64,000 bases of DNA, taken from positions 29,687 to 93,686 of IMG/VR virus record IMGVR_UViG_3300024307_000003. One strand, 5' to 3'. This document shows positions 31,671 through 56,105 of the stretch, one piece after another; within the stretch, counting starts at the first letter, position 1, and every line of letters starts with the position of its first letter. A model generated the notes under the pieces. It had not been told where the DNA came from. It was given only the letters and a program-made list of their open reading frames with translations, and made no database searches. Source of the DNA: a virus. Made by a program: the position numbers and the translations under genes.

Positions 31671-31745
31671 TGGTGTTCGTGCAGAGAATTGAACTCTGAT
31701 TAACAGGTTGAAAACCTGCTGTCCTCACCATTGGACGACACGAAC
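31671..31745 (-). tRNA. tRNA-Glu(TTC)
   Basis: Cloverleaf GTTCGTG/CACGAAC; loop TT-TTC-AA; encoded CCA. Confidence 0.93.
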
Positions 31746-31751
31746 AATATT

Positions 31752-31825
31752 TGGAGCGGGAAGAGGGGTTCGAACCCTCGCTATCAACTTGGAAGGATGA
31801 AGTGCTACCATTACACCATTCCCGC
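31752..31825 (-). tRNA. tRNA-Gly(TCC)
   Basis: GCGGGAA/TTCCCGC; loop CT-TCC-AA; U73; CCA. Confidence 0.93.
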
Positions 31826-31830
31826 AAATT

Positions 31831-31906
31831 TGGTGCTGCCATCAGGACTCGAACCTGAAACCTACCGCTTACGAAACGGTTGCTCTACCAGTTGAGCTAC
31901 AGCAGC
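31831..31906 (-). tRNA. tRNA-Thr(CGT)
   Basis: GCTGCTG/TGGCAGC; loop TT-CGT-AA; CCA. Confidence 0.92.
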
Positions 31907-31914
31907 ATACTTCG

Positions 31915-32040
31915 TGGGGGAGGCTGGAGTCGAACCAGCAAGCCAGATAAACTACTCACAAGGCTTAAAGCCGGCTGCCTTGTTTTCACTCACGAGACTA
32001 CCCCTCTCTGGGGCTGCGTATCCCATTCCGCCACTCCCCC
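31915..32040 (-). ncRNA. tRNA-like RNA with Leu-type D arm and 76-nt expanded centre
   Basis: Acceptor GGGGGAG/CTCCCCC-A; D arm GCG-GAATGGGATA-CGC; T arm GCTGG-TTCGACT-CCAGC. Confidence 0.75.
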
Positions 32041-32046
32041 GTAATT

Positions 32047-32123
32047 TGGTCGGAGATACAGGATTTGAACCTGTGACATTTTGCTCCCAAAGCAAACGCG
32101 CTACCAGACTGCGCTAATCTCCA
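32047..32123 (-). tRNA. tRNA-Pro(TGG)
   Basis: TGGAGAT/ATCTCCG; loop TT-TGG-GA; CCA. Confidence 0.93.
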
Positions 32124-46916: not shown

Positions 46917-47483
46917 ATGAAGAATGTAATCGTAGTGCAGGATGTTGACACTATAAATCAACCTATGCCAGATGGACAATCGTTTGTTCAATATTATAAC
47001 CATAAACTAAGATCTGCTCCATCTCCTAGTTTGATGAGCTATGTTGTTGCTGTTGATAACCTACAAGTGTTTTCTGCTTCAACCACAGAGAAGTATGAGA
47101 TACACTCTGAAACAGAGAAGGAACAGCAAGAAGAAATTGAGAGAATTAAAAAAGAAGATCCAGAGGCTATCTACACAGTGGATTCCCCTTGGAACTCTTC
47201 CGAAAAAACTTTGACAAAGACAAAAGAATTTCATTATGCCATTACGAAAGAGGCCATGAAATCTCTTCCGTTTATCGAATACATGCAAAATGAGTTGGAA
47301 TCCCTCCGTTGGGATAATCTATCATTACGAGGGGCTGTATTGAGATGGAAAGGAGTTGTAGAGGAATATCAGGATTACTCCCGGATGGTGGAACATGACG
47401 AGAGATCGCTGCGAGCAAAGCTGAAAGAAATCAAGAATCTCTCATTGTGGAAACGTATCTTTAGTTGGAGGAAATATGCTTAA
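46917..47483 (+). CDS. Hypothetical coiled-coil protein
   Basis: SD AGGAG; C-terminal LSLWKRIF. Confidence 0.65.
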   Translation: MKNVIVVQDVDTINQPMPDGQSFVQYYNHKLRSAPSPSLMSYVVAVDNLQVFSASTTEKYEIHSETEKEQQEEIERIKKEDPEAIYTVDSPWNSSEKTLTKTKEFHYAITKEAMKSLPFIEYMQNELESLRWDNLSLRGAVLRWKGVVEEYQDYSRMVEHDERSLRAKLKEIKNLSLWKRIFSWRKYA

Positions 47484-47925
47484 ATATAAGAAAGGAAATC
47501 TGCTGGACGCTTTTGACAACGGGGAAGTGAATATCGTTGTACACTGTGCTAACTGCTTTCACACCTTTGGTAGTGGGATTGCAAGAGAGATTGCACAACG
47601 GTATCCTGATGCTTATAAAGCAGATCATTGTACACCTTACGCCGATATTAATAAGCTTGGTACGGCTTCCGTTTGTTGGCTTGGTAAATCAAATTGGATT
47701 GTAAACCTATATGGACAATATGATTATGGAAAGAATAAACGGCAAGTGAACTACGGAGCGCTGGGTTCAGGTTTTTCTTCTGTAGTTAAATCCTTTGGGG
47801 AATCTGGAAATTCTTTTGGCTTTCCATTAATCGGCTGTGGACTAGCAGGCGGGGATTGGAGTATAGTGAGTGAATTGATTGAATTCTATTTCCGAGATGA
47901 GGATGTTACAATTTATGAACTTTAA
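47476..47925 (+). CDS. Macrodomain (ADP-ribose processing) protein
   Basis: KGNLL, HCANCFHTFGSGIA, NLYGQ, FPLIGCGLAGGDW. Confidence 0.92.
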   Translation: MLKYKKGNLLDAFDNGEVNIVVHCANCFHTFGSGIAREIAQRYPDAYKADHCTPYADINKLGTASVCWLGKSNWIVNLYGQYDYGKNKRQVNYGALGSGFSSVVKSFGESGNSFGFPLIGCGLAGGDWSIVSELIEFYFRDEDVTIYEL

Positions 47926-48163
47926 AAGAACATTAGTTACCATCACCACAGGAATGCTCCTCTCTGCTTGTCTACAAACTATTGCAGCAGAAACAACCAT
48001 CATCTGTGAGAAAGGACGATTGCATAACACTTGTCTGGATAATGGGAAAACTGTTTCTGTCAGAGCTTATGTAAACGAACATTCAAAGTACAAGAGAGTG
48101 GTTGACACTAAGACAGTGGGTAAATATGATAATCGTAAGGTAGAGATAAAGGTAAAGAAATAA
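47915..48163 (+). CDS. Exported protein or lipoprotein, paralog 1
   Basis: Hydrophobic N-terminus with LSAC; paralog of 48639..48875. Confidence 0.65.
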   Translation: MNFKRTLVTITTGMLLSACLQTIAAETTIICEKGRLHNTCLDNGKTVSVRAYVNEHSKYKRVVDTKTVGKYDNRKVEIKVKK

Positions 48164-48171
48164 AAGACTAC

Positions 48172-48247
48172 GGGGTAGCAATAAGAGTCTTTATGTATGG
48201 GCTTGTAACCCAAGCCTCAGAGGGTTAGGCACCCTCCTACTCCACCA
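48172..48247 (+). tRNA. Atypical tRNA: Ala-type acceptor (G3.U70), TGT anticodon, degenerate D and T loops
   Basis: GGGGTAG/CTACTCC-A-CCA; TGGG-CTTGTAA-CCCA; GAGGG-TTAGGCA-CCCTC; 76 nt. Confidence 0.7.
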
Positions 48248-48275
48248 ATTACAACTGTGAGGTTGAAAAAGCAAC

Positions 48276-48593
48276 ATGCAACTAAAGATAGGAAGACCAA
48301 ACAACTTCCATAAAGTTCTGTTTGCAGTAGACTTGTTTAAGTCTTATTGGAGATACAACGACATTTTTGTGGAGAATGTGAAAGTCAGTTATAATGACTT
48401 TCATAGTTTCTGGGATATATCTGTAAACAGAGGATTATTGTATAAAGAAGGGTGTGGTAGGGGTAGTGTTGAGTATCAGAAGAACAAATGGAGAGATAAT
48501 ATCGAAAAGATAGAACAACTACATCTCACAGCCGAAACAAACGAATCTTGGTCGTGGGAGTTTATAACCGAAGATTGTTACTGTGGATGCTAA
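48276..48593 (+). CDS. Hypothetical protein
   Basis: ORF between the duplicated genes. Confidence 0.6.
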   Translation: MQLKIGRPNNFHKVLFAVDLFKSYWRYNDIFVENVKVSYNDFHSFWDISVNRGLLYKEGCGRGSVEYQKNKWRDNIEKIEQLHLTAETNESWSWEFITEDCYCGC

Positions 48594-48638: not shown

Positions 48639-48875
48639 ATGAAATCTGTAACCTACGTTATTTTCTTGTTGTTGTTTTCATGTCAACCCTCTTACGCGAA
48701 AGAAACGACTATTGTCTGCCAGAAAGGTAAATATCACAACACATGCCTCTCAGATGGGCGGACAGTGACAACAAGGCAATATATAAAAGAACATTCGAAA
48801 TATCAAAAGATCGTTGACACCAAGACAACTGGTAAATATAATGATCGTAAGATAGAGATAAAGGTAAAGAAATGA
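48639..48875 (+). CDS. Exported protein or lipoprotein, paralog 2
   Basis: LFSC after hydrophobic stretch; ETTIVC.KG..HNTCL...EIKVKK. Confidence 0.65.
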   Translation: MKSVTYVIFLLLFSCQPSYAKETTIVCQKGKYHNTCLSDGRTVTTRQYIKEHSKYQKIVDTKTTGKYNDRKIEIKVKK

Positions 48876-55306: not shown

Positions 55307-55815
55307 TGGCAGGATTATATTTTGCTTCTGACTTCCACTTAGATCATAAGAACATCGGAAAGTACAGATTGGAAGTAAGGGACGCACAAGATAACGAAGA
55401 ACGAATAGAGAAGGTTTGGAAGACAACAATCACTAAACGTGATCTTGTGTATTGTCTTGGGGATATGTGTTTCTCTGAAGCTTCGCTAGATCGTTTTAAG
55501 ACATGGCCCGGAAGGAAGATACTGATATGTGGAAATCACGACAGGGATCACCTGTCTATGCAACAATTAGTGGATTCCTTTGATGAAGTGTATTCTCTGC
55601 TAAAGTACAAAGAGTTCTGGTTGTCACACCCTCCAATACACTCTGATGAGCTACGTGGTAGATATAATCTACACGGTCACTTACACTACCACACAGTTAA
55701 AGATTGGAGATATTATAACTGTTGTGTTGAACACGGTATACTTCATTCTCTGCAAGAGGTAAGAGATGTACTAGAACAACGGAAGAAACAAAGAGAATAT
55801 GAATATGGACTTTAA
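55303..55815 (+). CDS. Metallophosphoesterase, copy B
   Basis: SDFH, LGD, GNHD, SHPPIH, HGHLH. Confidence 0.88.
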   Translation: MMAGLYFASDFHLDHKNIGKYRLEVRDAQDNEERIEKVWKTTITKRDLVYCLGDMCFSEASLDRFKTWPGRKILICGNHDRDHLSMQQLVDSFDEVYSLLKYKEFWLSHPPIHSDELRGRYNLHGHLHYHTVKDWRYYNCCVEHGILHSLQEVRDVLEQRKKQREYEYGL

Positions 55816-55820
55816 GCCAA

Positions 55821-55851
55821 AGAAGGGAGCTAAACGCTCCCTTTCTGTTTT
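55821..55851. terminator. Bidirectional terminator at the strand switch
   Basis: AAGGGAGC-TAAAC-GCTCCCTT then TCTGTTTT. Confidence 0.8.
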
Positions 55852-56105
55852 GCTTTATAATAACAAACATGCCAAAGCCATACAGCGTTAGTTAGAACGA
55901 TAGCCATACCCCCGTACCAACTGAGGTACTGTTCAAGGTTGTAGTAATAAAATAAATTCCATACACCCCAACTCGTAAAGAACACAGTCACCTTCGGATC
56001 AACTCCCTTTACAACCTTGTCTTTACGTATTTGAAAGATATTGGAACAAATCGACACCGCCCCAAACAATTCAAAGCAACCATTTACTAAATCTGGAATG
56101 TTCAA
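55830..56105 (-). CDS. PQ-loop/SemiSWEET-like 3-TM membrane protein
   Basis: Three TM helices; I.KDK.VKGV...W..W...YY...N pattern. Confidence 0.55.
   Translation of the reverse strand: MNIPDLVNGCFELFGAVSICSNIFQIRKDKVVKGVDPKVTVFFTSWGVWNLFYYYNLEQYLSWYGGMAIVLTNAVWLWHVCYYKAKQKGSV

Follow-up and report, generated by a model that had tools for sequence, protein, structure and literature searches.

The closest published objects to the RNA described here are the TLD-only (message-less) tmRNA of mycobacteriophage DS6A and other CDS-less tmRNAs (PMC4131195, PMC11915505). The tRNA-like domain of tmRNA has no anticodon arm, so that SmpB can fill the space (PMC4131195). In bacteria, alanine identity is set by A73, G2-C71, G3.U70, and G4-C69 (PMC9976931), and AlaRS reads only the acceptor stem and ignores the anticodon, minihelices being alanylated as well (PMC9976931 and references within). 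Natural tRNAs of dual identity are also known, e.g., the Thr-to-Pro tRNAProX of Streptomyces; tRNAs of this type have working anticodon arms, and their mistranslation was shown (PMC10404621). Phage T4 encodes rnaC and rnaD, also called species 1 and 2, which the record NC_000866 describes simply as small, stable RNAs.

A 76-nt element of a tailed phage was compared with these systems. It resembles the DS6A TLD-only tmRNA in being phage-encoded, in its alanine-type acceptor with G3.U70, T arm, and CCA, and in the lack of decoding and of a tag frame, but it differs in the four-arm cloverleaf, the conserved pentaloop hairpin, and the non-canonical T loop, and tmRNA models give it and a relative 13-14 bits. 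The T4 RNAs offer a further likeness, being small tRNA-like phage RNAs with a tRNA-type 3' region that adjoin tRNA genes. A relation to them was rejected, as they are 119-139 nt long, their ends are not of the alanine type, and the motif UUG-UAACY-CAA is absent. With moderate confidence, we interpret the 76-nt element as an anticodon-less, alanine-type, non-decoding tRNA mimic that belongs to an undescribed family in phage-type contigs, the role of a decoy or competitor being our best guess.

The window, i.e., the whole stretch of 64,000 nucleotides analyzed, corresponds to bases 29687-93686 of a 93,686-bp IMG/VR record estimated to be 69% complete. Terminase, portal, protease, major head protein, and tape measure are encoded on the minus strand, and a plus-strand block comprises genes for dNMP kinase, ThyX, ribonucleotide reductase, endolysin, PhoH, a macro-domain protein, and ATP-dependent DNA ligase together with small genes. 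The terminase is 42-44% identical to those of cultured phages (phAPEC8-like, ICP1), therefore the phage has no close cultured relative. ARAGORN called six tRNAs in the record, and the four in the window (31671-32123) have canonical T loops and encoded CCA. Between the tRNA-Pro and the tRNA-Thr, there is a tRNA-like sequence of ~126 nt (31912-32040, minus strand) with a GGGGGAG/CUCCCCC acceptor, a canonical T arm, a long insert at the anticodon-arm place, and no terminal CCA, which weakly matched a single-sequence model (14.8 bits). Outside the window, ARAGORN called a tRNA-Met(CAT) of 92 nt with the anticodon at position 38 (G000:C1:25994-26085), which is unusually long and therefore may hold an insert.

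Table 1. Location of the 76-nt element, its parts, its surroundings in the window, and its relatives.
Feature	Position	Strand	Length	Description	Basis
tRNA-shaped RNA gene	48172..48247	+	76 nt	four-way junction, encoded CCA	sequence, geometry scan versus random genomes, fold, homologous elements
Acceptor 5' strand	48172..48178	+		GGGGUAG	pairs with CUACUCC at 48237-48243
Hairpin 1 (D-arm position)	48181..48194	+		AUAA / GAGUCU / UUAU, without G18 G19	sequence, fold
Hairpin 2 (anticodon-arm position)	48199..48217	+		stem GGGCUUG/CAAGCCU of 7 bp, pentaloop UAACC	energies, pair probabilities, covariation
T arm	48220..48236	+		GAGGG / UUAGGCA / CCCUC, T loop non-canonical	sequence
Discriminator A73 and encoded CCA	48244..48247	+			sequence
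Promoter-like site	48102..48130	+		sigma-70-type, TTGACA-17-TATGAT (11/12)	consensus match only
Small upstream ORF	47912..48163	+		signal peptide, lipobox-like LLSAC, paralog of 48639-48875	
Downstream ORF	48276..48593	+	105 aa	no known family; start codon 28 nt past the RNA	
Second copy of the 61-bp stretch 48101-48161	48813..48873	+		89% identical; perfect TTGACA-17-TATAAT promoter-like site	
Relative L032	L032:4646-4720	-	75 nt	starts GGGG; JGI metagenome homolog	
Relative L113	L113:7608-7683		76 nt	canonical T loop UUCGAUU	
Relative L106	L106:1618-1694		77 nt	identical copies in L067 and L056	
Relative L093	L093:4469-4540		72 nt	T loop UUCGAAU	
Relative L098	L098:91-180		90 nt		

The element fills most of a 112-nt gap between plus-strand ORFs about 16 kb from the tRNA cluster, in agreement with the remote position given to it in the initial annotation. 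The 76-nt cloverleaf with encoded CCA reported there was also found. A deliberately loose cloverleaf scan of both strands of the whole 93.7-kb record, which required a complete 7-bp acceptor stem, a 7-nt T loop closed by 5 pairs, 4 pairs in the D stem, and no fewer than 4 of the 5 pairs in the middle stem, matched only the four cluster tRNAs and the 76-nt element, all with CCA. In 200 Markov-1 random genomes used as the control, the same scan detected 0.175 cloverleaves per genome, in no case followed by CCA. The result is far beyond chance, hence the element is a genuine tRNA-shaped gene and not a chance fold.

The acceptor stem consists of seven pairs, G1-C72, G2-C71, G3.U70, G4-C69, U5-A68, A6-U67, and G7-C66, and the element has the cloverleaf, the 7-bp acceptor stem, the 5-bp T stem, and the 3' CCA of canonical tRNAs. 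The canonical elbow nucleotides are missing: the D loop, GAGUCU, has no G18 G19, the T loop, UUAGGCA, lacks T54-Psi55-C56 and A58, and C stands in place of U8. ARAGORN made no call on the element either at default settings or with -ps85. No match to it was obtained in Rfam at gathering thresholds, nor did the tRNA model RF00005 match at E ≤ 10 on a 401-nt stretch holding the element. The sole Rfam similarity was to the 3' end of permuted tmRNA, at 13.3 bits.

The middle arm had been read in the initial annotation as an anticodon arm with the loop CT-TGT-AA displaying a threonine anticodon, UGU. The string CUUGUAA is present, but the MFE fold of the element contains GGGCUUG-UAACC-CAAGCCU and not a 7-nt loop. 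The energy of the whole structure was -24.6 kcal/mol in the pentaloop register versus -17.4 to -19.5 kcal/mol in the tRNA register, i.e., an advantage of 5-7 kcal/mol for the former, and the isolated arm gave -9.2 versus -2.0 kcal/mol. The pair probability was 0.99 for G34-C40 of the pentaloop register and 0.001 for G30-C38 of the tRNA register. Since MFE alone is weak evidence for tRNAs, relatives of the element were needed.

Two search patterns were productive. The first, composed of the T loop and CUCCACCA, was searched in JGI metagenomes and gave 36 matches with one clear homolog (L032). The second, TTGTAACNCAA followed after 25-45 nt by CTCCACCA, was searched in IMG/VR and gave 65 matches, approximately the number expected by chance, among which four lineages stand out (L113, L106, L093, and L098). 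As both patterns demanded CTCCACCA, the conservation of the 3' acceptor strand, A73, and CCA is built into the search, which would miss any member that lacks alanine identity. In hairpin 2, the loop and its three adjoining pairs were likewise fixed by the second pattern, and the 5' GGGG was forced by neither.

Other candidates were rejected. L003, L046, L047, and L048 were chance matches, L028 and L038 from the JGI metagenomes were weak, L013 and L035 are internal to long ORFs (and L035 gave no cloverleaf fold), and L109, L055, L104, L107, and the remaining IMG/VR matches were without the family architecture. A weak model match in the window (55779-55852) was discarded, as it runs into the end of an ORF and is without CCA. 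The pattern GGGCTTGTAACCC...CCACCA gave chance matches only, and among 185,579 GTDB genomes of bacteria and archaea 11 pattern matches were obtained, none of them convincing (L118 and L124 were inspected). No match was found by blastn with the window, L106, and L098 elements against 50,697 GenBank phages, or with the 1.7-kb region around the element. Extra copies of the 11-nt hairpin motif occurred in the whole records of the relatives at the frequency of the control.

The homolog from the JGI metagenomes has the T loop, the inner four T-stem pairs, and the 3' end identical to those of the window element. Its hairpin at the anticodon-arm position has 9 bp, ACUUCUUUG / UAACU / CAAGGAAGU, for which a 7-nt-loop alternative cannot be drawn. 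The contig is phage-like, as indicated by PHROG matches, and it has nothing in common with the window phage at the protein level, the RNA being the only noteworthy nucleotide match. In this contig, the RNA starts right behind the stop codon that ends a hydrophobic ORF of 24 codons (L032:4724-4798, minus strand; MEVIITLILVIAGMVYLNNDSARS), and a terminator-like hairpin with a U run lies downstream of it (L032:4600-4645, minus strand). The four IMG/VR relatives have the GGGG start at a tRNA-like distance, each of them lies inside a phage tRNA cluster of 7 to 36 genes, and ARAGORN calls none. No Rfam family covers the relatives, and the only Rfam similarity of L113 was to the tmRNA 3' end (14.1 bits). 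Such genes are thus overlooked by tRNA finders and Rfam, even within annotated tRNA clusters.

Altogether, six lineages, all from phage-type contigs, have in common the acceptor GGGG...CUCCACCA and, as the 11-nt core of the hairpin, UUG-UAACY-CAA. The six elements show 59-71% pairwise identity, and each alone MFE-folds to one topology, a four-way junction of the acceptor stem, the short hairpin 1, the pentaloop hairpin 2, and the T arm. Acceptor pairs 5-7 vary between the members with pairing mostly kept. On these sequence features, we propose a family defined by the GGGG...CUCC-ACCA acceptor with G3.U70, the UUG-UAACY-CAA hairpin with a covarying extension, the T arm, and a length of 72-90 nt. 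The window element has all these traits, part of the motif having been fixed by the search patterns. No description of a UAACY-pentaloop alanine-type family was found in the literature, and this family of tRNA mimics is previously undescribed.

Some further observations were made in the records of the relatives. The phage with the L106 member carries another tRNA-like gene of the alanine type, 82 nt long (L106:245-326, minus strand), with the acceptor GGGGCGC...GCGCUCC-ACCA and the T loop UUAGAUU; in its middle arm UUG...CAA is kept, but the loop has 14 nt and starts with UAAU. In L098, an uncalled tRNA-like gene of 85 nt (L098:6249-6333, minus strand) adjoins a normal tRNA-Ala(UGC) and has the acceptor GAUGUAC/GUGCAUC with ACCA; its 9-nt loop, AUUGUAAAC, sits on a CCGG/CCGG stem. 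In several members, CCA is followed by AUU and an A-rich stretch (window 48247-48262, AUUACAAC; L106, AUUUACAAC; the L093 flank likewise), which may reflect a common context for 3' processing or coincidence.

The search for homologs with stem covariation, proposed in the initial annotation, thus found relatives, and the covariation favored the pentaloop hairpin. On the alignment A7 of five family members of similar length, 91% of the cells of hairpin 2 were paired, and four of the seven pairs were changed on both sides, i.e., in a compensatory way. Its covariation score was reached by none of 500 shuffles, and slid controls were 20-54% paired. The anticodon stem in the tRNA register was paired in 36% of the cells, the level of the shuffles and slid controls. 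The GGG/CCC pairing that closes a 7-nt loop can be drawn only in the copy from the window and in none of the other members, because the fifth loop base of this copy is C and not U. U33 and G34 of the proposed UGU are inside the 7-bp stem; as this stem is dominant and covarying, the triplet straddles the stem-loop boundary and there is no anticodon. Hence, the stems described as largely preserved in the initial annotation proved intact for the acceptor, D-type, and T stems, but the anticodon stem was not supported, and the threonine anticodon could not be upheld. In E. coli tRNA-Thr, the acceptor elements are G1-C72 and C2-G71. The window element does not display UGU at positions 34-36, and its 2:71 pair is G-C, not C-G.

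These results bear directly on the proposal that the element is a mistranslating tRNA, charged with alanine and reading the Thr codons ACA/ACG through UGU. CUUGUAA does fit the Y32-U33-NNN-R37 scheme, a 4-bp GGG(U)/(A)CCC stem is drawable, the alanine acceptor set is present, and in this reading the element would be like tRNAProX in combining the acceptor identity and the anticodon of different amino acids (PMC10404621). However, tRNAProX-type molecules have a functional arm where that of the 76-nt element lacks support, the tRNA register being 5-7 kcal/mol worse with a pair probability of about 0.001 and its stem being paired across the family at the background level. The D- and T-loop consensus, on which the ribosome and tRNA models rely, is absent as well, and both RF00005 (E ≤ 10) and ARAGORN were silent. 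We regard a mistranslating tRNA as extremely improbable; nothing in the data points to programmed Thr-to-Ala mistranslation, and this claim of the initial annotation was abandoned, UGU being partly in the dominant covarying stem.

A decaying, non-functional tRNA-Ala pseudogene would also account for the D and T loops without consensus, for the silence of the tRNA finders, and for a string in the anticodon region that is a few changes away from the UGC alanine loop. It is hard to reconcile with the perfect acceptor stem, T stem, and CCA, and with the recurrence of the unusual middle hairpin, with compensatory changes, in five other lineages at 59-71% identity, one of which (L032) is an unrelated contig with the RNA alone in common. 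Decay is therefore very unlikely.

The bacterial alanine acceptor set, A73, G2-C71, G3.U70, and G4-C69, is complete in the 76-nt element, so the alanine identity noted in the initial annotation, G3.U70 included, was borne out. Position 20, where G20 is a minor alanine determinant, is not assignable since the D loop is non-canonical. Judging from the acceptor nucleotides, the RNA is probably chargeable with alanine. The same four elements make it alike to tRNA-Ala and alanine minihelices; unlike tRNA-Ala, it is without an NGC anticodon and a 7-nt anticodon loop, G18 G19 and T54-Psi55-C56 are absent, and tRNA models do not respond to it. The non-canonical D and T loops might be a handicap for RNase P, AlaRS, or EF-Tu.

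The initial annotation also pointed to a pairing between the D loop and the T loop. The complementarity exists, GUCU of the hairpin-1 loop matching AGGC of the T loop over 4 nt, but taken alone it is unremarkable, as a run of at least 4 complementary nucleotides occurs in 17% of random loop pairs. In the family, complementarity extends over 4 nt in the window element (chance 0.17), 4 nt in L032 (0.27), and 6 nt in L106 (0.016), where AUCCAA faces UUGGGU, and its sequences differ between the three members. These three are the members with non-canonical T loops; L113 and L093, with a canonical UUCGA-type T loop, showed no complementarity between hairpin 1 and the T loop. The pattern of loop sequences suggests a rebuilt tertiary elbow in the members with non-canonical T loops.

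The likeness to tmRNA raises the question of a ribosome-rescue RNA, either a tag-less minimal analogue of tmRNA or an inhibitor of trans-translation like the TLD-only tmRNA of DS6A. The acceptor end is identical in type to that of tmRNA and the T arm is present, the only Rfam similarities were to tmRNA 3' ends (window element and L113, at the scores given above), the conserved loop contains UAA, and, besides the reported DS6A RNA, a similar molecule inhibits tmRNA (PMC4131195, PMC11915505). At the place left to SmpB in the tRNA-like domain of tmRNA (PMC4131195), however, the family has a hairpin of 7-9 bp. The 13.3 bits are far under the 47 bits set as the tmRNA threshold, a tag reading frame is lacking, and the record encodes no SmpB. 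A ribosome-rescue RNA is thus an unlikely identity for the element.

The surroundings of the element were analyzed for signals and partners. The promoter-like site lies within the 3' end of the upstream ORF, 42 nt upstream of the RNA, and the predicted transcription start is about 35 nt upstream of the RNA. The downstream ORF, probably co-transcribed with the RNA, had a single relative (P0004, 73% identical) among 5.8 billion proteins. The 61-bp stretches that hold the two promoter-like sites are the 3' ends of the paralogous lipoprotein-like ORFs 47912-48163 and 48639-48875, so that these sites are inside coding sequence; beyond the 61 bp, no DNA similarity between the two ORFs was detectable.

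Two genes upstream of the RNA, a macro-domain protein is encoded (47476-47925, plus strand) that resembles the DarG antitoxin macro domain. It matched NCBIfam NF048014 (E 1e-10, below the cut-off) and the phage 'phosphatase' phrog_335, and it may act in counter-defence against DNA ADP-ribosylation. Searches for syntenic relatives via the downstream ORF in IMG/VR and JGI metagenomes, via the macro-domain gene (L004-L006 are without a tRNA-like element), and via the terminase gave none, and no conserved protein partner of the RNA was found. Three further readings were rejected. A tRNA-repair context did not apply, the neighbors being the DarG-like macro-domain protein, PhoH, ATP-dependent DNA ligase, and unknowns, with nothing tRNA-specific. 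An attachment site was discarded, as the record has no integrase and the element is a full-length cloverleaf. The same was true for a Ro60 partner or a mimic of the YrlA, Y-RNA-like kind, since the record gave no TROVE match and the element has ordinary, unpermuted tRNA ends.

The location downstream of a promoter-like site and 28 nt ahead of the start codon of the following ORF would suit a cis-acting tRNA-like element of the mRNA that serves RNase P cutting or transcript-end protection and has no role as a free charged RNA, and so would the L032 copy, placed between the 24-codon ORF and the terminator-like hairpin. The full alanine set and a pentaloop hairpin conserved in sequence would be needless for such a role, and four relatives are free-standing genes among tRNAs. 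A purely cis-acting element is, in our estimation, improbable.

Altogether, we favor the non-decoding Ala-tRNA mimic, for which we infer the following course. The RNA would be transcribed from the promoter-like site jointly with the downstream ORFs, RNase P would cut its 5' end at G48172, and the encoded CCA would be kept. Host alanyl-tRNA synthetase would then load alanine, which is to be expected because AlaRS reads only the acceptor stem. The product would be an Ala-tRNA mimic that cannot decode because it has no anticodon loop. It may serve as a decoy or competitor for a host factor engaging tRNA acceptor ends, with a tRNA-directed defence toxin and the trans-translation machinery as candidates. 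The conservation of the hairpin core suggests that it is probably a specific contact site. The RNA may be a toxin decoy, may disturb or take over trans-translation, may supply alanine to an aminoacyl-tRNA transferase, or may be a cis processing signal, roles between which the neighboring genes do not discriminate; the ideas of a non-ribosomal Ala donor or a decoy, also put forward in the initial annotation, suit an anticodon-less mimic better than a decoder.

A more speculative reading, which we consider quite unlikely, is that the pentaloop U-AAC-Y is a displayed codon (Asn AAC or the stop UAA). The alanine-charged RNA would then either dock through loop-loop pairing on the GUU anticodon of a host or phage tRNA, as a sponge or as protection from anticodon-directed defence, or occupy vacant A sites as a minimal rescue RNA, tag-less and with its own stop. 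If true, it would be a new phage route to manipulate translation with a 76-nt RNA.

The family is a compact object of 72-90 nt whose invariant hairpin core offers a functional handle. If the RNA is made and alanylated, several unrelated phage lineages keep a molecule that hijacks an anticodon-blind synthetase and yet does not decode. It would then represent an unrecognized phage interface with host tRNA handling, be it charging, EF-Tu, ribosome rescue, tRNA-directed toxins, or aminoacyl-tRNA transferases.
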